DNA of 25,804 nucleotides from a virus (lineage: Duplodnaviria > Heunggongvirae > Uroviricota > Caudoviricetes): positions 1 to 25,804 of IMG/VR virus record IMGVR_UViG_648276650_000007. One strand, given 5' to 3'. This document shows positions 3,949 through 20,722 of this stretch, piece by piece. Position numbers and translations under genes: made by a program. The notes under the pieces are model-generated. The model made no database searches. It was not told where the DNA came from and was given only the letters and a program-made list of their open reading frames with translations. Within the stretch, counting starts at the first letter, position 1. The number at the start of each line of letters is the position of its first letter.

Positions 3949-4294
3949 TCTCTGCTCCTGTTGATACGGAAAGGGACACAGGCACACCGTTATTCCGCCG
4001 CCCGGTCAGCTCCACCACCATAGAACCGTCAAAGTTGCTGTTGATGGTGATGGAATCCAGCGTCAGCCGTGGCTCCCAGCGACTCAGCGCCACATACACT
4101 GCCGACATGACCTGCAGGCGTAATGCCGGATTTTGTGGCTGGTCTATCAGTGCCGACAGCAGGGAACCATATTCCCGACGGGCAATGCGGCTACCCTGCG
4201 GCGTCAGCAAAATGTCCCGCACCGACTGGCGCAGATGGTCAATATCAGTAATGGCTTTACCGCTGGTATTGTTCATCCCGCTATAAAGCGTCAT
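3935..4294 (-). CDS. W: baseplate wedge protein W (gp25-like)
   Basis: 119 aa; ...DIDHLRQSVRDILLTPQGSRIARREYGSLLSALIDQPQN resembles P2 gpW; follows V with adjacent stop/start. Confidence 0.85.
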   Translation of the reverse strand: MTLYSGMNNTSGKAITDIDHLRQSVRDILLTPQGSRIARREYGSLLSALIDQPQNPALRLQVMSAVYVALSRWEPRLTLDSITINSNFDGSMVVELTGRRNNGVPVSLSVSTGAENGND

Positions 4295-8182: not shown

Positions 8183-8833
8183 TCAGCGGCTGTCATTGCG
8201 CAGTCTGCGCTCCAGCTGCTGTTTGTCTTTTTTCACGCCACAGCGGGGATCGAGCTGTAACGCATGGTTGAGATGATTAAGGGCAGACGCCGGATTTCTT
8301 TCACTCAGGACAGCGCCAATCGCTTTATGCAGACGCGCCCGTGACTGGTCCGGCATATCCATACCGTCTGTCAGCTCCAGGGTCTGCAGCAACAGATCGG
8401 CATCAAAGCCGGTGGCGGCAAGCATTGCGCTCTGGGCTGCATCTGCCATTTCCTCTGCCAGCACGGTCTGCACGTTGCGGTTACCTAACGGCATCACCCA
8501 GCCATGACGCAGGGCGTGACGCCCGATCTCCAGCGCCCCGGCATAATCTCCGGCATCAATGCGCCACAGCATCACGTACATCAGCACGTCATCCTGTTGA
8601 GCGCCTCCGGCAGCCAGGACACCCTCCGCCCAAGCGGCGTACTTCGGCAGCAGCTCCACCTTGATTTCCGCTTTTTTGACCGTGGACTGAACGCCCTTGA
8701 GACGGCGGCGGTCTTCCGCCAGTTGCAGCAGCATCAGGTCATAGCCCGACGCGTGGCGAACGCTGCCGCCCTCGCGGGCGGCCTGTTCAGCCTGAACGCG
8801 CAGGCGATGCTGCCGTGCGGGACTCAGGCTCAT
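8183..8833 (-). CDS. M: terminase small (endonuclease) subunit M
   Basis: 216 aa; MSLSPARQHRLRVQ...DDVLMYVMLWRIDAGDYAGALEIGRHALRHG resembles P2 gpM. Confidence 0.85.
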   Translation of the reverse strand: MSLSPARQHRLRVQAEQAAREGGSVRHASGYDLMLLQLAEDRRRLKGVQSTVKKAEIKVELLPKYAAWAEGVLAAGGAQQDDVLMYVMLWRIDAGDYAGALEIGRHALRHGWVMPLGNRNVQTVLAEEMADAAQSAMLAATGFDADLLLQTLELTDGMDMPDQSRARLHKAIGAVLSERNPASALNHLNHALQLDPRCGVKKDKQQLERRLRNDSR

Positions 8834-10887: not shown

Positions 10888-12654
10888 ATGAACACCACAC
10901 TGACACCCGCAGATCTCGATCCCCGTCGGCAGGCCATGCTGCTGTACTTTCAGGGATACCGCGTAGCCCGCATTGCTGAAATGCTGGGCGAGAAAGTTGC
11001 AACCGTTCACAGCTGGAAAAAACGCGACAAGTGGGGTGACTATGGGCCGCTTGATCAGATGCAGCTCACCACCGCCGCACGCTACTGCCAGCTCATTATG
11101 AAGGAGCACAAAGAAGGGAAAGATTTCAAAGAGATTGACCTGCTGGCGCGCCAGTCGGAGCGCCATGCGCGGATCGGCAAGTTTAACAATGGCGGCAACG
11201 AAGCCGACTTAAACCCTAACGTCGCCAACCGCAACAAAGGCCCGCGCCGTCAGCCGGAAAAGAACGTTTTCACCGATGAACAGATTGAGAAGTTGGAAGA
11301 AATCTTCCATTCCTCCATGTTCAACTACCAGCGCCACTGGTGGGAAGCCGGAAAAACCAACCGCATCCGCAACCTGCTGAAGTCACGCCAGATCGGCGCG
11401 ACCTTCTATTTTGCCCGTGAAGCCCTGATTGACGCCCTGCTAACCGGGCGTAACCAGATTTTCCTTTCCGCCAGCAAGGCTCAGGCCCACGTCTTTAAGC
11501 AGTACATCATCGACTTCGCCAAAGAAGTGGAGGTGGAGCTGAAAGGCGATCCGATGGTGCTTCCTAACGGGGCCACGCTGTACTTCCTCGGCACCAATGC
11601 CCGCACGGCCCAGAGTTACCACGGCAACCTGTATCTGGATGAATATTTCTGGATACCGAAATTCCAGGAGCTGCGCAAAGTGGCTTCCGGTATGGCTATT
11701 CACAAAAAATGGCGACAAACCTATTTTTCCACGCCATCCAGCCTGACACACAGTGCTTATCCGTTCTGGTCCGGTGCGCTGTTCAACCGAGGGCGCAGCA
11801 AAGCCGATAAGGTGGACATCGACCTGTCCCACAGCAATCTGGCCCCCGGCCTGCTGTGCGCAGACGGGCAGTACCGCCAGATAGTCACTGTGGAAGATGC
11901 GGTGCGCGGCGGCTGTAACCTGTTCGACCTCGACCAGTTGCGCATGGAGTACAGCCCGGACGAATACCAGAACCTGCTGATGTGTGAGTTCGTGGACGAT
12001 CTCGCGTCTGTGTTCCCACTCAGCGAGCTGCAGGCGTGCATGGTGGACAGTTGGGAAGTCTGGACCGACTTTCATGCACTGGCCCTGCGCCCGTTTGGCT
12101 GGCGCGAAGTGTGGATCGGATATGACCCGGCGAAAGGTACGCAGAACGGCGACAGCGCCGGATGCGTGGTGGTGGCGCCGCCAGCCGTGCCGGGCGGTAA
12201 GTTCCGCATTCTTGAGCGTCACCAGTGGCGCGGAATGGACTTCCGCGCCCAGGCTGACGCCATCAAAAAACTGACCGAACAGTACAACGTGACCTATATC
12301 GGTATCGACTCAACCGGCGTTGGTCACGGGGTTTACGAGAACGTGAAAGCGTTTTTTCCTGCCGTCCGGGAGTTTGTCTACAACCCCAACGTTAAAAACG
12401 CCCTGGTACTCAAGGCCTACGACATTATCAGCCACCGCCGTCTGGAGTTTGACGCCGGACACACCGACATAGCGCAGTCCTTTATGGCAATCCGTCGCGC
12501 CACCACCGCCAGTGGCAACCGCCCGACCTATGAAGCCAGCCGCAGCGAAGAAGCCAGCCACGCCGATCTGGCCTGGGCAACGATGCACGCACTGTTTAAC
12601 GAACCGCTGCAGGGCGAATCCGCCAATACCAGCAATATTGTGGAGATTTTTTGA
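10888..12654 (+). CDS. P: terminase large (ATPase) subunit P
   Basis: 588 aa, the size of P2 gpP; N-terminus MNTTLTPADLDPRRQAMLLYFQGYRVARIAEMLG is P2 P-like; overlaps the portal start by 4 nt. Confidence 0.9.
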   Translation: MNTTLTPADLDPRRQAMLLYFQGYRVARIAEMLGEKVATVHSWKKRDKWGDYGPLDQMQLTTAARYCQLIMKEHKEGKDFKEIDLLARQSERHARIGKFNNGGNEADLNPNVANRNKGPRRQPEKNVFTDEQIEKLEEIFHSSMFNYQRHWWEAGKTNRIRNLLKSRQIGATFYFAREALIDALLTGRNQIFLSASKAQAHVFKQYIIDFAKEVEVELKGDPMVLPNGATLYFLGTNARTAQSYHGNLYLDEYFWIPKFQELRKVASGMAIHKKWRQTYFSTPSSLTHSAYPFWSGALFNRGRSKADKVDIDLSHSNLAPGLLCADGQYRQIVTVEDAVRGGCNLFDLDQLRMEYSPDEYQNLLMCEFVDDLASVFPLSELQACMVDSWEVWTDFHALALRPFGWREVWIGYDPAKGTQNGDSAGCVVVAPPAVPGGKFRILERHQWRGMDFRAQADAIKKLTEQYNVTYIGIDSTGVGHGVYENVKAFFPAVREFVYNPNVKNALVLKAYDIISHRRLEFDAGHTDIAQSFMAIRRATTASGNRPTYEASRSEEASHADLAWATMHALFNEPLQGESANTSNIVEIF

Positions 12655-13688
12655 TGGGAAAGAGTAAGAAGAACCGCGCTGCGGCGACGAAACAGATCCA
12701 GCTTAAAAGTCAAACTACAGCCGAAGCATTCAGCTTCGGCGATCCCGTTCCTGTTCTGGACCGCCGAGAACTGCTGGATTATGTGGAATGCGTACAGATG
12801 GACCGTTGGTATGAGCCGCCCGTCAGCTTTGACGGACTGGCGCGCACCTTCCGCGCCGCCGTGCATCACAGTTCCCCGATTGCAGTAAAGTGCAACATTC
12901 TGACCAGTACCTATATCCCTCATCCGCTGCTCAGCCAGCAGGCTTTTTCGCGTTTTGTGCAGGACTATCTGGTATTTGGTAACGCCTACCTGGAGAAACG
13001 CACGAACCGATTCGGTGAAGTTATCGCTATTGAGCCTGCGCTTGCAAAATACACCCGACGCGGATTAGACCTGGATACCTACTGGTTTGTGCAATACGGT
13101 ATGACAACCCTGCCGTATCAGTTCACGAAAGGCAGCATTTTTCATCTGATGGAACCGGACATCAACCAGGAGATCTACGGCCTGCCCGGTTATCTTTCTG
13201 CCATTCCGTCAGCCCTGCTCAACGAGTCCGCCACGCTGTTCCGCCGCAAGTATTACATTAACGGTAGCCATGCAGGCTTCATCATGTATATGACCGATGC
13301 CGCGCAGAACCAGGAAGATGTGAACAACCTCCGCAACGCAATGAAAAGCGCCAAAGGCCCTGGCAACTTCCGCAATCTGTTTATGTACTCGCCTAACGGC
13401 AAAAAGGACGGACTTCAGATTATCCCGTTGTCAGAGGTCGCAGCGAAGGATGAGTTTTTGAATATCAAGAACGTGAGTCGGGATGACATGATGGCAGCAC
13501 ATCGTGTGCCGCCGCAAATGATGGGGATTATGCCGAGTAATGTTGGGGGTTTTGGGGATGTGGAGAAAGCCAGCCGCGTCTTTGTTCGCAACGAGTTGAT
13601 ACCTCTGCAGAAGCGCCTTCAGGAATTGAACGACTGGCTTGGAGAAGAAGTCATGCGTTTTGAAGATTATAATTTAGGTATTGAATGA
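12651..13688 (+). CDS. Q: portal protein Q
   Basis: 345 aa, the size of P2 gpQ; co-directional and coupled with P, as in the P2 P-Q operon. Confidence 0.9.
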   Translation: MMGKSKKNRAAATKQIQLKSQTTAEAFSFGDPVPVLDRRELLDYVECVQMDRWYEPPVSFDGLARTFRAAVHHSSPIAVKCNILTSTYIPHPLLSQQAFSRFVQDYLVFGNAYLEKRTNRFGEVIAIEPALAKYTRRGLDLDTYWFVQYGMTTLPYQFTKGSIFHLMEPDINQEIYGLPGYLSAIPSALLNESATLFRRKYYINGSHAGFIMYMTDAAQNQEDVNNLRNAMKSAKGPGNFRNLFMYSPNGKKDGLQIIPLSEVAAKDEFLNIKNVSRDDMMAAHRVPPQMMGIMPSNVGGFGDVEKASRVFVRNELIPLQKRLQELNDWLGEEVMRFEDYNLGIE

Positions 13689-13693
13689 TATTT

Positions 13694-13717
13694 AAAAGCC
13701 TGTACAAACAGGCTTTT
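13694..13717. terminator. intrinsic terminator hairpin between convergent Q and the cargo operon
   Basis: Perfect 10-bp stem AAAAGCCTGT / ACAGGCTTTT with ACAA loop, followed by a T-rich run on the + strand; lies between the Q stop (13688) and the stop of the minus-strand gene at 13758. Confidence 0.6.
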
Positions 13718-13757
13718 ATTCTTTAGTTTAAAATCACCAAGACATGAGCATTAAAAC

Positions 13758-14423
13758 TTAAAGATCCGGATCTACAGGCTCATGATATAGATTTACAGGG
13801 TAATGAATAACTTCATAATTCAGTTGAGTAACTGTGTGAACATGCTGGCTATAAAAAACCAATGGATTTTTTTGACAAGGAGTAATCGTTATAGATTTAC
13901 AGGCATGAATTCTTGGTGCGAATTTATCTAAATGCGCCTTCCAGTTGCTCATCATTTCATTACATTTTCTATTACGAGTATAGATAATCAATCCACCACT
14001 TGCGCTGTCTACGGTCCCTGTACTATATCGTTCAGTGAGTTGAGCATACCCTTTAAATAAATAACTATATGAAGATGTATGTTTTTTGGCTTCGCCATGC
14101 CAAATATAATCCTTTAGTTTTATTGTAATATCACAATGTCCGCGCTGATTATTTTCATGAAATGCTTCAATGTCCATATCTTTATTTTTGATATTGGCCA
14201 ATAAAATTAAAGTAAGCTGATCTTCTGTTAAATCGAAGTTTAACTTATTTGAATTCTCTTCTATTTCCTTTACAGCAGAATCAAGTTCAATCCTGACAAA
14301 TTGTTTGAAATTATCGTACGATTGAAGTGCAAATCTAACACGAGTAATAGAAGCATTAATACGCTGAAGAAAAATATCATTATCAATATCAGCCAAACTC
14401 ATTGCTGCAGACATTTTTAACAT
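13758..14423 (-). CDS. hypothetical protein, cargo gene 3 of 3; possible PD-(D/E)xK-type nuclease
   Basis: 221 aa, AT-rich codon usage unlike the flanking phage genes. Start ATG overlaps the stop of gene 2 (TGATG). Contains EAFHE...GHCDITIKLKDYIWHGEAKK, compatible with an E...D...ExK nuclease core; this is inference from motif spacing only. Confidence 0.65.
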   Translation of the reverse strand: MLKMSAAMSLADIDNDIFLQRINASITRVRFALQSYDNFKQFVRIELDSAVKEIEENSNKLNFDLTEDQLTLILLANIKNKDMDIEAFHENNQRGHCDITIKLKDYIWHGEAKKHTSSYSYLFKGYAQLTERYSTGTVDSASGGLIIYTRNRKCNEMMSNWKAHLDKFAPRIHACKSITITPCQKNPLVFYSQHVHTVTQLNYEVIHYPVNLYHEPVDPDL

Positions 14424-14869
14424 CAGATAATATCCTTTGATTTAGATTCATCTAATGTAAAAAAAGGAAATACGAATGACTTATAGTCATACATAAGCTC
14501 CCCTGTAAATGGGTTTGCTAAAGATTGACTGATTTCCGCCTCAATAACTTCCTCTATTTCAAGTTCTACAGGGTCATGAAAATCATCAATGAACCAATAA
14601 TTGAGTTTTAAAAAATCAACCTTTGGGCTACAAAGAATTTGTATGGCCGGATAGATAACCTGCTCATACGTTTCTGGCTGTAAAACCTTATTATAACCAC
14701 CAGCTATATTAAATAAATCCTTATAACTTAAAGCTATATTTGATGATTTTTTAGCCCTTGCCTCGATTTCATCGTACAAATAGCAAGCTAACGCCCCAAT
14801 TTCAGGGCGTTCTGCACACATTTCTTTGATGATCTTGGGCATATCACCATCCTTCATTGCTGACTCCAA
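14423..14869 (-). CDS. hypothetical protein, cargo gene 2 of 3 (small acidic protein)
   Basis: 148 aa; start is directly adjacent to the gene 1 stop; acidic C-terminal half (DDFHDPVELEIEEVIEAEISQ); no motif I recognise. Confidence 0.6.
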   Translation of the reverse strand: MESAMKDGDMPKIIKEMCAERPEIGALACYLYDEIEARAKKSSNIALSYKDLFNIAGGYNKVLQPETYEQVIYPAIQILCSPKVDFLKLNYWFIDDFHDPVELEIEEVIEAEISQSLANPFTGELMYDYKSFVFPFFTLDESKSKDII

Positions 14870-15976
14870 TTATAATATCAGCTTTGTGAGGGTTTCGAAA
14901 TCATCTTTGGATATACATTTACTTAATATAGCATAGTTAACAGGAGAGCAACTACTCCCTCCTAGATGCCTGCGGAGTGTTCCCGGAATGATAAGCTCTA
15001 CGTTATCCGCTAATTGCAGTTTTGGATTATTTCTATCAACTCTAATTCCAATACGATACAAACCAATACTGCCTACTGCTTTGATGCCTTCCTTATTAAA
15101 CAAATCATCACGTAAGTCTTTAGTGGCCACATTTTTCTTTTCTTTATGCGTAGTCCCCTCATTCGTCAAAAATGACAAATCAAAGACTTTATAGCTTAAT
15201 TTTGAATAAGGCAATGAATTTTGTTTGAAAATTGGCTCAATTAACGGATAAAAATCTTTTTCCGATGATTTAAATTCATAACCGACATGATTATACAATT
15301 CACGAATAATGTTACTCTTTGCAAAAGTAACATTATCACCAATAATATTACCATTAGTATCTACCAAAACATGAATTTTATTAGTAACAGAGTCTAATAT
15401 ACAGACATCAAAACATTGTCGCTTTTCTTTTCGCTTTGCAATAATTTCATCAAACTGCTTGTATTGCGCAAGTGCTGACGGGGGAATTTTTTCTCTTACA
15501 ACTAATTCTCTGACAGATGAAAAAACAAGTATTGACTGGGTGTTTTGAATAGAATAATTAACAAGTTCAGGTTGATTTTTTACAGCATTTTGCAATTGGA
15601 CATCATCAAGGATCGAATCAACCAATAATGATGGTTGATTCATCAAATTCCATTGGAAACTAAATCTGTCATTTAGTGTTTTAATTACACTATTATCTAC
15701 AGTCAAACTAAATATTGCTTTTTCACCATAAACGACCTGACCCAAAATTAGGTCATTTACGTTTGCCATAATGCCATCAAACTTTTGCCTATCTTTACTT
15801 TTAAGATCAATGAGGCTTTCTAGTATTTTTTCGTTTGTTGCTTCACGCCCCCTACCTGTTGGCAGCCCTAAAGACGCAATAATTGGCCTTGCAACGTTCC
15901 ATGTGAAACGTTCAGTTAAGGTCAAGATCGACTTTAACTCAGACTCAGAAAGCACTACTGGGACACTACCTGTCAT
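14870..15976 (-). CDS. hypothetical protein, cargo gene 1 of 3
   Basis: ORF 14870..15985 begins with GTG; the in-frame ATG at 15976 (MTGSVPVV...) is preceded by an AGGTG Shine-Dalgarno-like sequence. ~368 aa; no Walker A or other motif recognised by eye. Confidence 0.65.
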   Translation of the reverse strand: MTGSVPVVLSESELKSILTLTERFTWNVARPIIASLGLPTGRGREATNEKILESLIDLKSKDRQKFDGIMANVNDLILGQVVYGEKAIFSLTVDNSVIKTLNDRFSFQWNLMNQPSLLVDSILDDVQLQNAVKNQPELVNYSIQNTQSILVFSSVRELVVREKIPPSALAQYKQFDEIIAKRKEKRQCFDVCILDSVTNKIHVLVDTNGNIIGDNVTFAKSNIIRELYNHVGYEFKSSEKDFYPLIEPIFKQNSLPYSKLSYKVFDLSFLTNEGTTHKEKKNVATKDLRDDLFNKEGIKAVGSIGLYRIGIRVDRNNPKLQLADNVELIIPGTLRRHLGGSSCSPVNYAILSKCISKDDFETLTKLIL

Positions 15977-16125
15977 AACTTGCACCTAGTCATCCAAAAA
16001 GCAATAAGAATTTGCTCTTGTCTTAATTTATCCTTCGATACCTAACAAATTACCTCAATGTTGAAAAAATTTGCAAGCCATTTGCTTCTAAAAAGCGACC
16101 TTACTCAGAGTGTTACAAAACTAAG

Positions 16126-16139
16126 CGAGCGCGCGCTCG
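16126..16139. repeat. perfect 14-bp GC-rich palindrome CGAGCGCGCGCTCG
   Basis: Read directly from the sequence; lies in the non-coding GC-rich island between the AT-rich cargo operon and the lipoprotein genes, abutting the cos-like motif. Confidence 0.85.
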
Positions 16140-16154
16140 TATCCCCGCCACGCC
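16136..16154 (-). other. candidate cos (cohesive end) site
   Basis: Minus strand reads GGCGTGGCGGGGATACGAG. The first 13 nt match the 19-nt cohesive end I recall for phage 186 (GGCGTGGCGGGGAAAGCAT) and 12 of 13 match P2 (GGCGAGGCGGGGAAAGCAC). Orientation is correct relative to Q (5' end of the motif points toward Q). Depends on my memory of the cos sequences. Confidence 0.3.
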
Positions 16155-16634
16155 TGCCCGCTTTATGTAGTAGTTTTCATGCACCTGCATGACATGAGCA
16201 AAAGCCCGCCAGTTCTGGCATGTCTTAGCCAAACCGATCCTCAAACGATCATGCGAACTCATGCAGCATAGACATGCATGACATGAAAATCGGTCAAACC
16301 TTGAAACCAGTCATAAATATGAGCCAGCTTAATACACACTAAATAGCTGCGTCTAATACTGCTACACCTGCCGTTTACTGACATGTGGCATGTCGCGTAA
16401 GGACAACATACTGTAGGCCAGATACAGCAGGATCAGGCGAAGAAAACGGCCCCACGCCTTACCCAGCAAGAGCCAAGGGCCAAGGGCTAACCGAAAGTGG
16501 AACATTATTCCGCGCAGTTATTTAGTGTCAGCTCTTTTGAGCTAAAATCAAGTTTCAACATGAGGGTCTGTGCAGGCTTTCTCATCCCGCTAATTTATAC
16601 AGCACACCTATATGGCTATGAGTTTGTCATGCCC

Positions 16635-16667
16635 GCTAATCCTGTTAGGATTAGCCTTGTTTTTTTA
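16635..16667 (+). terminator. intrinsic-terminator-like hairpin 17 nt upstream of the lipoprotein start
   Basis: 8-bp stem GCTAATCC / GGATTAGC, loop TGTTA, followed by CTTGTTTTTTT. Confidence 0.5.
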
Positions 16668-16683
16668 CGATTGGGATAGGGAT

Positions 16684-17490
16684 ATGAAGAAATTAACTGG
16701 CGTAATTGCTTTTGCTCTGCTGCTTACTGCTTGTGACAAACCGAAGATCGATGCATCAAGCGATCAGTCGATGAAAGAGTCCATTCAAAAAGTAAGAGAG
16801 TCCTTACCTGCAGATAAAAAAGCTCAGTTTGATGATGCAGTTAAAGTCGTTGCCTTTAGCCAAATCAACATGAGAGAGCTAATGCAGGCTGGAACGTCTT
16901 CTGGGGACGTCTACGAAACAAAAATTAAGTCAGCGTTGGAAGGTAAAACTGGTGATGAGGTTATAAATTACGCACAAACTATTCGCCTTGAGCGTGAGAA
17001 GAGAGAGAAAGAACAGGCTCTGCAAGAAATAAAAGAACTGGAAGCCAAACAAACCTCTGCAACACAGGCTGCGGAAAAAATGAAAGCCTTCAAGGTCGAA
17101 CGTTCCCGTTTTTATTTCCAGAAAGAGGATTACGGCAATGATCAGCCAATTCTGGATATTAGCGTTGAAAACGGAACAGACAAAGCGGTTGCCAGAGTAT
17201 TCTTCAAAGGAGTTATTGCCAGCCCAGGAAGAAGCGTCCCTTGGTTCTCTGACGTCTTCAACTATAAAATTTCTGGAGGTCTGGAACCAGGTGAGAAAGC
17301 CAACTGGAAATTAGCCCCTAATAGATACTCTGATTGGGGAAAACTTAAAGTTCCGGCTGATGCTATATTTACCGTCACAGTCATTGGCCTTGAAGACGCA
17401 GATGGGAAATCGATCTATGGTGACGCCGAGTTTTCAGAACGCGATGCTGACAGACTGAATCAACTTAGAGATAAGTACCTTTCTAAATAA
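16684..17490 (+). CDS. hypothetical lipoprotein
   Basis: ORF 16612..17490; start placed at Met25 (MKKLTGVIAFALLLTACDKPK) because of the signal peptide with lipobox LLTAC and the hairpin covering the upstream part; ~268 aa mature protein with a Lys/Glu-rich coiled-coil-like middle. Confidence 0.7.
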   Translation: MKKLTGVIAFALLLTACDKPKIDASSDQSMKESIQKVRESLPADKKAQFDDAVKVVAFSQINMRELMQAGTSSGDVYETKIKSALEGKTGDEVINYAQTIRLEREKREKEQALQEIKELEAKQTSATQAAEKMKAFKVERSRFYFQKEDYGNDQPILDISVENGTDKAVARVFFKGVIASPGRSVPWFSDVFNYKISGGLEPGEKANWKLAPNRYSDWGKLKVPADAIFTVTVIGLEDADGKSIYGDAEFSERDADRLNQLRDKYLSK

Positions 17491-17598
17491 TCAAAATTAA
17501 AGCTACTTCAGCATAGTCCCTGAGAATATATATCAGGGACTACCAAATCACGGCAGATACCCCTTAGTTAAATAATGCTAAACGCTTAGAAAGAGACC

Positions 17599-17898
17599 AT
17601 GAAACGTATAACTTTCTCCTTTACGTTAGTAGCAATCATCATAGCCTTAGCTGGATGTGCTTTGCCAGATAAAGACGGCGACTTCGGAGCTTATGTTCAT
17701 GCCTGTCAGCAATATGCATACGGAAAATCCTATGCCTTTGAGAATAGAGACTTCGCGTATAAGGTCTGTAAGGACGCGGCGAAACTGTGGAGTGACGAAG
17801 TTCCTGGCTATATCATCAGGCAAATTCAACTACATCCTGAAATACCCAGCGAAGAAATTAAATATGCAGCCATGGCCGGCTCTTTGGGGAACAACTAA
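17599..17898 (+). CDS. hypothetical small lipoprotein
   Basis: 99 aa; signal peptide with lipobox IALAGC; co-directional with the preceding lipoprotein gene. Confidence 0.6.
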   Translation: MKRITFSFTLVAIIIALAGCALPDKDGDFGAYVHACQQYAYGKSYAFENRDFAYKVCKDAAKLWSDEVPGYIIRQIQLHPEIPSEEIKYAAMAGSLGNN

Positions 17899-17965
17899 AT
17901 CAACTTATGAGAAAGGGGCTTAATGCCCCTTTTCGGTTCCCTTATCAAGTCCTAACGAAACAAGC

Positions 17966-18256
17966 TCAACTGATTACATCCATCGACCTACTGTATTCAT
18001 GGCTTCGAATTTTCGCCATCAACTCATCAGTCAATTCAGAAACCCACTGCAGAGCTAGCCCCTTCTCTTCATCACTACACTCACTAGCCGCTACAAGCTT
18101 AAGAAAAAAATCAATGCGCTGGAGCTTCAAAGACTCCAAAAAATAGTCCTGCATCTTTCCTCCTATAACACCATACGCAATACTGTACATATAACCACTG
18201 TTTATATTTACAGTATATAATAATCTTACTGATGTAAAACGTTTTTTTACGTTCAT
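17966..18256 (-). CDS. hypothetical protein downstream of replication gene A
   Basis: 96 aa AT-rich ORF; no recognisable motif; start uncertain. Confidence 0.3.
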   Translation of the reverse strand: MNVKKRFTSVRLLYTVNINSGYMYSIAYGVIGGKMQDYFLESLKLQRIDFFLKLVAASECSDEEKGLALQWVSELTDELMAKIRSHEYSRSMDVIS

Positions 18257-18307
18257 CAGCCTGATATGCCTGGTATTATTAAGAGCACGAATTGTTAACC
18301 CGCGTGA

Positions 18308-20722
18308 TTAATACATGTTCCGCCACTTATCATCTTCCTGCAAACGCTGGTTCCGATAGAAGATACGCAGGCCTGCTCCTGACGGAATACTGCCACCGCA
18401 AAGGAGCAAATCGACCTCTTTCTCGCTGCCATCAAATCCTCTGGACTTCAGTTCATAGACGAGCTGCTGACGCTGATACTCTGTAATTCGCTGTTTGTAG
18501 TCTTTACGCCGTTTCGGTTTAACCAGGCGCAATCTTGCTGCCAGTTCCCGGCGCTCTTTTTTGCTCATACTGTGCAGGTAATCGTGCAATTCCTTGTCAT
18601 CCATGCAGGTAATGTCCGTTCTGGTATCCCCATCTGCTGATTCATCTTTCTCATGTTGGTTCAAATTTTCAGCAAGGGGACAGTTATTGCCACGAGTCCA
18701 AGGGGCGCAAGCGCCCTGGTCGGCTGCCGCCTCCTGAACGTCAACGGCCTTACGAACCATTTTCCACTTCACTGCATGAGTGCAGATCTTGCCCTCTGCA
18801 ATGGGTGACCAGATGCCATAAATACGAATACCGTGATCGCCATAGGCGGTTGGCTCTTCGTTGATTTCATAAGCGGTTCTGATGAGGTGATATTTGCGGG
18901 GAACCAGTACGCCGCCCTGCTTCATGATGTAGGTGGCAAAACAACCAGCATCAGCAGCAGCCAGAATGGCATCAAGACGCGGGTTATCCAGTACCGGCGC
19001 ACCTGCTTTTTTGTCACCCTGTTGCCTTGCCGCCTGACCAGCCAGCAAGCGAAGTTCACGGTAAGCCTGACGTCCCGGAATACCAAAGAAGCGGAATTGC
19101 TGAACACGATGCAGAGACGCCCAGGCATTAACGTATTCAGCGTTATCACGCAGGGATTTACCCGTTTCCTTGCTGATCTCGCCAGCCAGACCACGCCCGT
19201 CAATGTTCTTACTGATGTATTTCGCGATGTAGCTTGTCGGCGTTCCTTTGCGCGGGTTTATCAGCTCAGATTTAAAGCGTGGACCAGTGTTATTACCCAG
19301 TTCCTCGCGGTCTTCACGGATGGCAAACTTACGCAACAATGCAGTAATGGCGCGGCGGTCTTTTTTGCGCATGAAACACAACAGGTGCCAGTGAACTGTA
19401 CCGTCATGATGCGGCTCAGCCACCCGCACGCCATACCAGCGCAACCCGGCTTTGTGTATCGCCTTACGAAATGCAGCAAACATGCCGACCAGATAATCGC
19501 TGCTTTGTCTTACCGTCGCATTTGTCCAGGTTGGGTTTGGTCTGCCGTTATTGAGCGTGGAATGGAAACGTGACGGACAGGTAATGGTGTAGAAAACGGC
19601 GCAGTCACCGCGCATTTCCGCGATAAGCTCCAGACCTTTAACACAGGCCATCATCTCATTGCGGCGGTGCGCCGGGTTGCTGCTGCTGGCGTTTACCACG
19701 TCTTCCATATCCAGCGTGTCGCCCTCTTCGTTCACCAGTTCATGAGAACGGAAAAACTCCAGTGACTTGCGGCGCTGCTCACGTTTATGCATCACGGCTT
19801 CATAGCTGACATAGGGAGATGCTTTTTTGCTGACCAGGCAGACAGCACGCAACTGCTCTTCCCGCCATTCGCAACGCATTTTCCATAATTTCCGGTACCA
19901 CCAGTCGGCGCACAACATACGCGCCAGCGAACCCGGAATGAGTTCATAGGGCACGGGTTTACGGCGGTTTCTTTTCCGACGGAGTTGCTCAAACGCAGGC
20001 GGGATGACATCCAGACGCAGGGTTTCCGCTGCCACCTTTTCCCATGTCTTGCGGATTTCTTCTGGCTTAACGTCATCGGTGGCATACAAATCACCACAAG
20101 CTGCATCAAGGCACATGCTCATATGCGCAGCGACAAGGGTAGACAGGCGTTTCACCTGATCCTGACTCATTTCAGGCAGAATCAGCAGGCCGTCCAGCCC
20201 TACATGGCTTGCCATAAAACGAAAAGATGCAGATAGCTGGCTGTCGCGTACATGCTCCAGTCGTTCCAGACATGGCTTAATCGTCTCACGTAAATAGCGG
20301 GAATAAGCCTTTGGCCTGCCCAAGCTGCTGAAGTATTCAATACGTTGCATCAGCGGCTTGCTGATATGGGAGGGCTGGGCGCTGACGTCTGCCAGAATGA
20401 CCATGTCCGGGTTAAAACGCTGCTGCTCATGCGCCAACTTTGCCCGGCTAATGAGCTTATCCTGCTCTATTTCGCGTTGGACAGGATCACGGGATTCATT
20501 AAAGAAATAACGCTCCCAGACCTGATCACTCAGTGCCTCGCGGCGCAGTTGTTCCTGCTCGTTATCGGCAGCGTACAGAGTGATCAGGTTTGAAAGCGCA
20601 GAAACCGGCGCAACTTCCGCCGGGTCCAGATAAGGGTTAATGGCCTTTTTCGGGCTGTTCCATGAGAACGATGCGGCAGCCTCGTTAAAGCCGCAGCAGT
20701 TGCTCATATCGGCATGGCTCAT
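18308..20722 (-). CDS. A: replication initiation endonuclease (P2 A / rolling-circle HUH family)
   Basis: 804 aa; HUH-like motif TVHWHLLCF and two-tyrosine motif [11 protein letters not shown]; size and position match P2 gene A; ATGA overlap with the upstream methylase stop. Confidence 0.9.

Follow-up and report, generated by a model that had tools for sequence, protein, structure and literature searches.

What is the role of a roughly 700-bp stretch, seemingly free of genes, that lies between two sets of cargo genes in a prophage? This question is raised by positions 15977-16683 of the window (the whole stretch of DNA analysed here, 25,804 nucleotides long), where an initial annotation had noted a 14-bp palindrome, short repeated and inverted motifs and a terminator-like hairpin just before a lipoprotein gene, and had offered a small RNA, an attenuator or a packaging region as explanations. 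All of the features that it listed are present in the sequence where it had placed them, and they are real and non-random, yet they are spread over four elements rather than belonging to one system.

Composition of the island

Our analyses favor, at a probability of about 90%, a reading of the island as a mosaic of four unrelated known elements in the cargo hotspot that adjoins cos in a P2-like prophage (Peduoviridae), with no RNA gene among them. These are the 5' flank of a left-hand cargo cassette (15977-16125, minus strand), the cos core of the prophage (16126-16278), a 185-bp miniature inverted-repeat element (MITE) of the IS630/ISEc33 type (16340-16524), and the control region of the lipoprotein gene (16624-16683, plus strand), which combines a hairpin, a T-run and a promoter candidate. 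The island gives no pointer to a new RNA or mechanism.

The P2-like setting is seen in the Pfam matches across the window, which comprise the gpP large terminase, portal, gpM small terminase, P2 capsid, gpO scaffold and gpA (domains Terminase_5/6N/6C, Phage_portal, Phage_term_smal, Phage_cap_P2, Phage_GPO and Phage_GPA), and in RefSeq, too, the portal and the replication endonuclease are annotated to the two sides. Inside the island, RefSeq carries no annotation except an over-long start of the lipoprotein gene (16612) in some genomes. The proposed lack of a convincing open reading frame was borne out, with only unconserved frames of ≤60 aa found in the island, and coding is excluded at a 7-nt unit whose number varies among otherwise identical copies. 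The joining of three kinds of motif into one system did not hold: the inverted GACATG motif is part of the MITE and has no relation to the TGCAT boxes of cos.

Evidence for a P2-family cos site

Of the functions initially suggested, the packaging region proved to be the right one, with the palindrome and the CATG-rich repeats together forming a P2-family cos site. On sequence grounds, this P2-like prophage has its cos packaging site at 16126-16278. It lies between the portal gene Q and the replication gene A, with the gpM/gpP terminase encoded in the same element, and it takes the form of a conserved block of ~150 bp, such that 77 phage records match only 16128-16278 (79-92% identity). Profiling 81 distinct P2-family cos regions column by column, with positions counted relative to the cut, revealed conservation from -124 to +26 and, outside these limits, ~27% identity, which is the random level. 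A core of 55 bp common to P2 and P4 cos is credited to Ziermann and Calendar 1990, as cited in PMC5694545 and PMC9594776, and the part of the core shared with the satellite P4 includes here the GCGCGC box and the proximal TGCAT boxes (P2, 186, P4, Fels-2 and the 81 regions).

Homology to annotated cos ends places a predicted 19-nt cohesive end, GGCGTGGCGGGGATACGAG, at 16136-16154 on the minus strand. Base by base, this segment can be aligned with cosL as annotated in P2 (GGCGAGGCGGGGAAAGCAC) and with cos as annotated in 186 (GGCGTGGCGGGGAAAGCAT); the reverse strand could be aligned to P4 and Fels-2 as well. Identity to the relatives is 19/19 for Fels-2, 15/19 for 186 and 14/19 for P2, with the first 13 nt being the same as in phage 186. 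From these alignments we infer nicks at 16135/16136 on the plus strand and at 16154/16155 on the minus strand. During lytic growth, the gpM/gpP terminase encoded in the window would recognise the ~150-bp cos region and would nick it twice, 19 nt apart, leaving cohesive ends of GGCGTGGCGGGGATACGAG as 5' overhangs.

The 14-bp palindrome, CGAGCGCGCGCTCG, was recovered at 16126-16139, where it is built around the GCGCGC box by the cut and takes in the last 4 nt of the cohesive end. GCGCGC itself occurs at +20 in 74/81 cos regions, and only the cos subtype seen here has the extended palindrome; Fels-2 has CGAGCGCGCGCAAGC. The repeated GCATGACATGA was likewise found twice, at 16187-16197 and 16276-16286, each copy within a 20-nt direct repeat (16178-16197 and 16267-16286, 85% identical), and the tetramer CATG is present in 9 copies in 16126-16291 where 0.73 would be expected from its window-wide frequency.

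Alignment to the family revealed that the GCATGACATGA repeats are TGCAT boxes, which hold fixed positions in P2, 186, P4, Fels-2 and the 81 distinct P2-family cos regions. A proximal pair, consisting of TGCAT at 16179-16183 and an inverted copy at 16186-16190, lies within the 55-bp P2/P4 core; TGCAT is found at -29 in 81/81 regions and ATGCA at -36 in 55/81, and both are found in P2, 186, P4 and Fels-2. A distal cluster at 16251-16278, which includes the second GCATGACATGA copy of the initial annotation, holds boxes at 16274-16278 and 16261-16265 and a degenerate one at 16251-16255; these correspond to -124 (47/81 regions), -111 (45/81) and -101 (37/81), at the same positions in P2, 186, P4 and Fels-2. 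The GCGCGC box would flank one nick, with five position-conserved TGCAT boxes on the other side. By comparison with lambda cosB/cosQ, the boxes may be recognition elements for terminase or for a host factor, and, on a more speculative and improbable reading, all five could define a recognition code of the P2-family small terminase that is copied by P4 satellites. Among the papers searched, there was no study that tests terminase binding to TGCAT boxes. The terminator-like scan also picked out, between the two sets of boxes, a decayed version of a GC hairpin with a T-run that is conserved in the family (16207-16220, minus strand, reading towards cos), for which the family consensus is GCCCGCCAGAACTGGCGGGCTTTTG; the copy here folds no better than shuffled sequences (z = -0.27).

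Cargo modules flanking cos

With cos placed at 16126-16278, cargo lies on both sides of it. To the left, a 2.2-kb cargo cassette is placed between cos and Q, and 15977-16125, comprising untranslated and promoter sequence, forms the 5' flank of its first gene, which starts at 15976 in RefSeq and has its ATG at 15976-15974 on the minus strand. This flank diverges with the cassette, showing 84% identity to a related locus (L038) vs ~100% from 16126 rightwards, and cargo swaps among E. coli prophages have their breakpoints at ~16127 and ~16278. Cos has to remain intact and so persists, conserved, between two cargo modules that are exchanged independently of each other, the left one being the minus-strand three-gene cassette and the right one the lipoprotein module.

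Searches of the flanking cargo proteins with PADLOC and Pfam returned DUF6694, in the lipoprotein, as the sole significant match, with no significant match for the three left proteins. A 221-aa cargo protein has a Rep3_C match that falls below the Pfam cut-off (E = 0.0026).

Control region of the lipoprotein gene

The right-hand cargo is the DUF6694 lipoprotein gene (16684-17490, plus strand; Pfam DUF6694, E = 3.5e-22). Its true start is the ATG at 16684 (MKKLTGVIAFALLLTAC), which corrects the RefSeq start at 16612, because RefSeq itself uses this start in L036, L037 and L038, which include genomes and plasmids, and because only then is the lipobox N-terminal. Upstream of it, 16624-16651 holds a sigma-70-like promoter candidate on the plus strand, composed of a -35 element TTGTCA (16624-16629), a 16-nt spacer and an extended -10 element TGnTAGGAT (16643-16651). 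The candidate scores 9/12 with TG in a consensus scan, and such matches are equally frequent in shuffled sequence (14 vs 14.2 expected). TTGTCA/TTGTCC and TGTTAGGAT are kept in two orthologous loci, L161 (Citrobacter sp.) and L177, and TAG(G)AT(T) recurs upstream of the Photorhabdus, Pseudomonas and metagenome homologues, at 21-36 nt from the ATG.

Overlapping this candidate is a perfect 9-bp hairpin, GCTAATCCT-gtt-AGGATTAGC (16635-16655, plus strand, found by scan and by fold), which is followed by CTTG and seven T residues (16660-16666). The hairpin and T-run are as initially described, and the distance from the T-run to the ATG at 16684 is exactly 17 nt. The stem has 4 G-C pairs and folds at -12.5 kcal/mol (z = -3.9 vs shuffles), and 16635-16666 as a whole has the form of an intrinsic terminator (stable stem-loop and U-tract) and passes the terminator scan. 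No plus-strand gene or Rfam RNA lies upstream that would end at this hairpin, and the nearest plus-strand operon (P-Q) is closed by a strong terminator of its own at 13693-13718. The hairpin moves with the lipoprotein gene onto plasmids, and in one of these (L037) an IS26 end directly adjoins it.

Comparison of the hairpin among homologues, which rests on few sequences (~6 independent upstream regions), revealed a mixed pattern. One pair changes from G-C to G-T in L161, and L177 combines the same kind of change with a second, uncompensated one (C-G to A-G) at the base of the stem and with a T-run that is interrupted, lowering stability to -8.3 kcal/mol. The Photorhabdus and metagenome homologues are without hairpin or T-run and have the TAG(G)ATT motif only, and before the Pseudomonas homologue the hairpin is another one and lacks a T-run. 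The right arm of the hairpin carries TAG(G)AT, a motif that distant homologues without the hairpin retain. The last 60 bp of the island would be the lipoprotein gene's own control region, in which promoter spacer and -10 element would be embedded in the 9-bp palindrome. The palindrome most likely either stops transcripts from upstream, such that the cargo gene would run from its own promoter only, or serves as an operator.

The more specific proposal that GCTAATCCT-gtt-AGGATTAGC is a repressor operator over the lipoprotein -10 element and not an RNA hairpin, with the T-run being incidental or initially transcribed sequence, is unlikely but has the best standing of the rivals considered. The inverted repeat is perfect over 9 bp and centred on the extended -10 element, similar half-sites (GCAATCT...AGATTGC) precede the Pseudomonas homologue in spite of only 50% protein identity, and the right half-site is kept where the hairpin structure is lost. 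However, no regulator gene was identified beside the lipoprotein gene in any context, the ~6 upstream sequences are the only independent ones available, and the conservation of the half-site is explained equally well by the -10 element. A broader and rather more doubtful idea is that the hairpin and TAG(G)ATT, found before DUF6694 genes from E. coli to Pseudomonas, form a dedicated switch, either an operator or a combined terminator and promoter, that would tie expression of the cargo lipoprotein to some signal.

The initial suggestion of a small RNA or attenuator, by which the island would encode a rightward small RNA or leader that is ended by 16635-16666 and regulates the lipoprotein gene or phage functions, is very improbable. 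The hairpin with its seven T residues does look like a terminator by scan and by folding, the T-run stands 17 nt before the ATG as is typical of attenuators, and the G-T pair in L161 is compatible with a plus-strand RNA stem. However, searches against Rfam 15 came back empty both for the whole window at gathering thresholds and for 15800-16800 even at E <= 10, the 500 bp upstream of the hairpin are accounted for by cos, a dispensable MITE and a poorly conserved spacer with indels, and the scan detected no plus-strand promoter from cos to the hairpin except the one that overlaps the hairpin. No leader can precede the hairpin in plasmid L037 because the IS26 end abuts it there. Supporting covariation is likewise absent from the few sequences compared, with the changes in L177 breaking both stem base and T-run, with only TAG(G)ATT kept in Photorhabdus and the metagenome, and with the Pseudomonas hairpin differing and being without a T-run.

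An IS630-type MITE between cos and the lipoprotein gene

By its ends and its target site, 16340-16524 is a non-autonomous MITE of the IS630/ISEc33 type and a passenger without a demonstrated role here; it had lacked annotation. The 185 bp consist of a TA at 16340-41, a body at 16342-16522 and a second TA at 16523-24, set into a CTAG target of which C is at 16339 and G at 16525. The ends match the terminal repeats of ISEc33, a relative of IS630, at 27/29 (left) and 19/20 (right) positions and those of IS630 itself at 26/29 and 19/20, while the interior is unrelated to either. The same C-TA-[element]-TA-G flanks occur in the window and in the copies L007, L012 and L031, and a CTAG target with TA duplication is reported for IS630 (Tenzen references listed in PMC2170065). 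The element has no transposase gene, since all of its open reading frames are ≤47 aa and the frame is broken by 7-/14-nt length differences among copies.

Copies of 67-83% identity were found at no fewer than 7 unrelated sites, the flanks being unrelated too, and the element is present in 158/5426 complete E. coli genomes, usually once. Three orthologous loci (L161, L177 and L178) have an empty single CTAG upstream of a 95%-identical lipoprotein gene, in the form ...GCA-CTAG-CGTCAGCTC...; these sites surfaced only via a search with the lipoprotein protein, and an exact-junction search of complete E. coli genomes and viral contigs gave no empty site. Orthologous prophages lack the MITE, which makes these 185 bp a dispensable insertion. 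The MITE would have transposed into a CTAG ~160 bp upstream of the lipoprotein gene, duplicating TA.

Two smaller features fall inside this element. The inverted motif GACATGTGGCATGTC was confirmed at 16380-16394, where it forms a small hairpin, GACATG-tgg-CATGTC (the GACATGtggCATGTC motif), of modest fold (-9.5 kcal/mol, z = -1.9); the L007 copy has GACATATGGCATATC, a change on both stem sides. Three tandem 7-nt units (CAAGAGC, CAAGGGC and CAAGGGC) follow at 16467-16487, and near-identical copies of the MITE carry 1, 2 or 3 of them, with length differences among the E. coli prophage copies being multiples of 7. Folding of the region against shuffles gave z = -1.8 for the plus strand and z = -3.5 for the minus strand of 16279-16670, values that we ascribe to the MITE arms, which are complementary over 40 nt.

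That this inverted-repeat element instead functions as a structured RNA, or as a site of recombination for cargo exchange at mobile-element junctions, is highly improbable and the weakest of the rivals: its interior and not its ends alone is 67-83% conserved across copies, both stem sides of one internal hairpin changed in L007, and copies often stand where the backbone of a phage or island borders on cargo genes, but the ends are those of IS630/ISEc33, the CTAG/TA signature is present and the empty sites are clean, truncation or decay affects several copies (L009, L010, L033 and L167), the number of 7-nt units drifts among copies, Rfam has no match for the element, and its plus-strand fold is unexceptional (z = -1.8).

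Several further candidates were considered and rejected. A type I toxin or small peptide, represented by a hydrophobic 47-aa minus-strand frame at 16362-16505, is disrupted by 7-/14-nt indels among copies. For a retron msr-msd or other reverse transcriptase-linked RNA in the long inverted repeat, no annotated reverse transcriptase is adjacent in the contexts examined and the ends are IS630 repeats. A TnpB omega-RNA was suggested by the L010 copy ~420 bp after tnpB, but other copies have no tnpB nearby, and the end sequences do not fit integron attC or ERIC/REP repeats.

Comparison with known systems

The cos site resembles those of the P2 family and P4 in having GCGCGC and TGCAT boxes at equal distances from the cut and a cognate gpM/gpP in the same prophage. 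It departs from P2 and 186 at positions 14-19 of the cohesive end, which read ATACGAG here vs AAAGCAC or AAAGCAT, and it is this change that results in the longer 14-bp palindrome with the GCGCGC box. The gap from cos to Q also differs, holding a 2.2-kb cassette here vs only ~170 bp in P2. According to Dodd and Egan 1996, as cited in PMC5694545, retrons Ec67 and Ec86 lie between cos and a terminator, and the left cassette fills the same cos-to-Q slot that these retrons use in 186-like prophages.

The MITE is like other IS630/ISEc33-type MITEs in its near-identical terminal repeats, CTAG/TA signature, small size, lack of transposase and scattered copies. It can be compared to MITEEc1, a 123-bp element of the IS630 family that was present in all 10 isolates of one study (PMC11845447), whereas the element here is 185 bp long and found in 158/5426 E. 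coli genomes; the two are probably different elements, set apart by length and distribution. The control region of the lipoprotein gene is in turn reminiscent of morons, where a cargo gene has its own promoter-like sequence and a terminator-like hairpin against outside read-through, but the terminator of a classical moron is downstream of the gene, and the hairpin here is upstream and overlaps the promoter candidate.

Taken as a locus, the closest parallel is the cos-adjacent diversity hotspot between gpA and gpQ of P2-like prophages (Rousset et al. 2022, PMC9122126), which holds accessory and anti-phage genes. Here too, variable low-GC cargo flanks a conserved cos block and is exchanged independently on either side, the breakpoints falling where the cos core ends, whereas the cargo proteins, unlike the defence cargo of the hotspot, are without a PADLOC defence family match. 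The cos-core edges at ~16127 and ~16278 are usable as cargo boundaries when the P2 hotspot is mined for defence systems.

A mosaic island in the cos-proximal hotspot of a P2-like prophage

The window is a P2-like (Peduoviridae) prophage in the orientation opposite to the standard P2 map, with Pfam placing small terminase gpM (8183-8833) and replication protein gpA (18308-20722) on the minus strand, large terminase gpP (10888-12654) and portal gpQ (12651-13688) on the plus strand, and also identifying the P2 capsid protein and scaffold gpO. RefSeq likewise annotates the portal and replication endonuclease in identical E. coli prophages, and between them three minus-strand hypothetical proteins, a DUF6694 lipoprotein and three small genes. 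Between Q and A, where GC content falls from ~55% to 29-45%, lies the hotspot for accessory genes that P2-like phages are known to have near cos (PMC9122126).

Inside this hotspot, the island upstream of the lipoprotein gene (15977-16683) is a mosaic of known element kinds. The ORF check agreed with the initial annotation that it holds no credible ORF, and the sequence check located every feature listed there, including the palindrome CGAGCGCGCGCTCG (16126-16139), the GCATGACATGA repeat (16187-16197 and 16276-16286, both within a 20-nt direct repeat) and the inverted motif GACATGTGGCATGTC (16380-16394); a 166-bp stretch has 9 copies of CATG, where 0.73 would be expected. Among the roles proposed there, a packaging region held up, as a cos site, while a small RNA and an attenuator found no support.

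The island centre matches a cos site

The minus strand at 16154-16136 reads GGCGTGGCGGGGATACGAG, with AAAGCGGGCA before it and CGCGCGC after it. It aligns, base for base, to the cohesive ends that are annotated for P2 (GGCGAGGCGGGGAAAGCAC), 186 (GGCGTGGCGGGGAAAGCAT) and P4, and the homologous site of Fels-2 is identical to it. By sequence, then, the island centre is a cos site. When 15900-16750 was compared with 50,697 phage records by distant BLAST, 77 matched, all P2-like phages (of Klebsiella, Yersinia, Escherichia, Salmonella, Erwinia and Aeromonas) and essentially all over 16128-16278 only.

When 81 distinct cos regions, taken from viral contigs and from reference phages, were anchored at the cut, conservation extended from -124 to +26, with identity outside it at ~27%, the random level. 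GCGCGC stood at +20 in 74 of the 81 and TGCAT at -29 in all of them; TGCAT also recurs at -124, -111 and -101 and stands inverted at -36, and P2, 186, P4 and Fels-2 carry boxes at these same positions. These positions identify the annotated palindrome as the GCGCGC box together with the last part of the cohesive sequence, and the GCATGACATGA repeats as TGCAT boxes. A ~55-bp core common to P2 and P4 had been established (Ziermann and Calendar 1990, as cited in PMC5694545 and PMC9594776). Because their positions are fixed even in a satellite that borrows its helper's terminase, the TGCAT boxes may be recognition elements for terminase or a host factor. Most P2-family cos regions also contain a GC-rich hairpin and T-run (GCCCGCCAGAACTGGCGGGCTTTTG, consensus -69 to -45) reading towards cos, which would halt transcription before it crosses cos; in the window copy (16207-16220) the left arm has decayed, leaving a 5-bp stem.

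An IS630-type MITE occupies 185 bp of the island

Rightwards lies a long imperfect inverted repeat (arms 16336-16375 and 16489-16528), which prompted us to search 16279-16684 alone. Outside the 19 prophages that share this lipoprotein module, matches in ~140 E. coli genomes and in 30 plasmids covered only the inter-arm stretch, at 67-83% identity and with unrelated flanks. Copies, for example, adjoined ISEc1 and Rhs genes, lay near a fimbrial usher, or had tail-fibre genes on one side and an O-antigen acyltransferase on the other, both in a lambdoid-type prophage (L009, ~4001-4175) and in Shigella phage SfII (L031, ~4001-4175); others were in a 65-kb phage-like plasmid with baseplate genes (L010, 4001-4197, ~420 bp after tnpB), in Salmonella plasmid pSGI4 and in a Citrobacter plasmid, and a partial copy lay between yfjH and intA, beside ssrA. 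The element recurs at backbone-cargo boundaries in several mobile elements.

Every copy starts CTAAATAGCTGCG and ends CGCAGCTATTTAG, shared ends that led us to suspect IS630, which is described as inserting at CTAG with duplication of TA (Tenzen references in PMC2170065). In a BLAST search, the left arm hit annotated copies of ISEc33 and IS630 at their ends; the two ends of ISEc33 are identical to those of the MITE at 27/29 and 19/20 positions, and those of IS630 at 26/29 and 19/20 positions, with no similarity inside. Judged by these ends, 185 bp of the island are an IS630-type MITE, laid out as C (16339), TA (16340-41), body (16342-16522), TA (16523-24) and G (16525). Three related prophages, one in a Citrobacter genome (L161) and two in viral contigs (L177 and L178), turned up in a search with the lipoprotein protein. 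They share the cos core, their lipoprotein gene is 95% identical, and they read ...GCA-CTAG-CGTCAGCTC... without the element; their loci are thus clean empty sites.

The GACATG-tgg-CATGTC motif is internal to the MITE, and a 7-nt unit (16467-16487) occurs one to three times, depending on the MITE copy. A metagenome contig (L167, ~1300-1500) joins the lipoprotein module and only the last ~50 bp of the MITE to unrelated upstream DNA, which places a rearrangement breakpoint inside the MITE. MITEEc1, a 123-bp IS630-family MITE, was present in 10/10 isolates of one study (PMC11845447), whereas the 185-bp element is in 158 of 5426 complete genomes and usually once; on these counts the two are probably different elements.

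The hairpin region travels with the lipoprotein gene

The lipoprotein gene starts at ATG 16684, as in some RefSeq records, and only this start leaves the lipobox signal peptide (MKKLTGVIAFALLLTAC) N-terminal; other records start the DUF6694 gene at ATG 16612, giving a 292-aa protein, and this long form, which covers the hairpin, is an over-extension artefact of annotation. The hairpin GCTAATCCT-gtt-AGGATTAGC (16635-16655; -12.5 kcal/mol, z = -3.9) is followed by CTTG and T7, and ends with its T-run 17 nt before the ATG. The segment from 16632 rightwards, which has the hairpin, T-run and ribosome-binding site, moves with the gene onto plasmids, and on one of these (L037) an IS26 end directly abuts the hairpin.

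No plus-strand transcription unit ends at the hairpin: the P-Q operon comes with a terminator of its own, and the intervening cassette lies on the opposite strand. We infer that the region is the lipoprotein gene's own control region, in which the palindrome would either stop incoming transcripts or work as an operator. The promoter scan returned TTGTCA (16624-29), a 16-nt spacer and TAGGAT (16646-51), with TG two bases upstream forming an extended -10 in the hairpin loop and right arm; as consensus matches here were no commoner than in shuffled sequence, this is a candidate promoter only. Among relatives, L161 changes the closing pair from G-C to G-T, and L177 shows a C-to-A change without compensation and a T-run interrupted by a G, its energy falling to -8.3 kcal/mol. 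A Photorhabdus homologue (62% protein identity) keeps CCTTAGGATTAGTC only, a metagenome homologue (48%) keeps GGTAGATTGCC, and a Pseudomonas homologue (50%) has another 12-bp hairpin (GGCTGGCAATCT...AGATTGCTAGCC) without a T-run. A TAnnnT-type motif lies 21-36 nt before the ATG in all of these relatives. This thin comparison leans towards sequence being kept more than structure.

Exchangeable cargo on either side of cos

Cos is a fixed block with an exchangeable cargo module on either side: among complete genomes, some E. coli prophages share window 13600-16278 and diverge afterwards, and others share 16127-18400 and differ on the left (DarT, HEPN, DinI-type and other cargo). In locus L038, the left cassette (~86% identical) and its flank match at 84-88% up to 16125 and at 97-100% from 16126 rightwards, a step that marks 15977-16125 as the cassette's 5' flank. 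In two E. coli genomes (ECONIH4 and CAVP776; H41 and H42) an IS1 insertion interrupts the otherwise identical 13600-18400 region, the match being 5.6 kb in two pieces including an IS1 family transposase. Downstream of the DUF6694 gene, a 99-aa ORF (17599-17898) without a Pfam match starts with a lipoprotein-type signal (MKRITFSFTLVAIIIALAGC), so that the right-hand cargo may encode two lipoproteins.

The left cassette comprises three minus-strand genes (13758-15985; 221, 148 and 368-371 aa) of low GC (29-39%), whose proteins gave no significant Pfam and no PADLOC match, the sole Pfam hit being Rep3_C in the 221-aa protein (E = 0.0026, below the family cut-off). Between the converging Q gene and cassette sits a strong stem-loop, AAAAGCCTGT-acaa-ACAGGCTTTT (13693-13718; -14.4 kcal/mol, z = -5.0), T-rich on both sides, which could terminate transcription from both directions and whose positional counterparts are the annotated tQ of P2 and tW of 186. 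The cassette thus lies between the Q terminator and cos, the same slot in which retrons Ec67 and Ec86 are reported in 186-like prophages (Dodd and Egan 1996, as cited in PMC5694545), and this shared slot makes it a candidate uncharacterised accessory or defence system.
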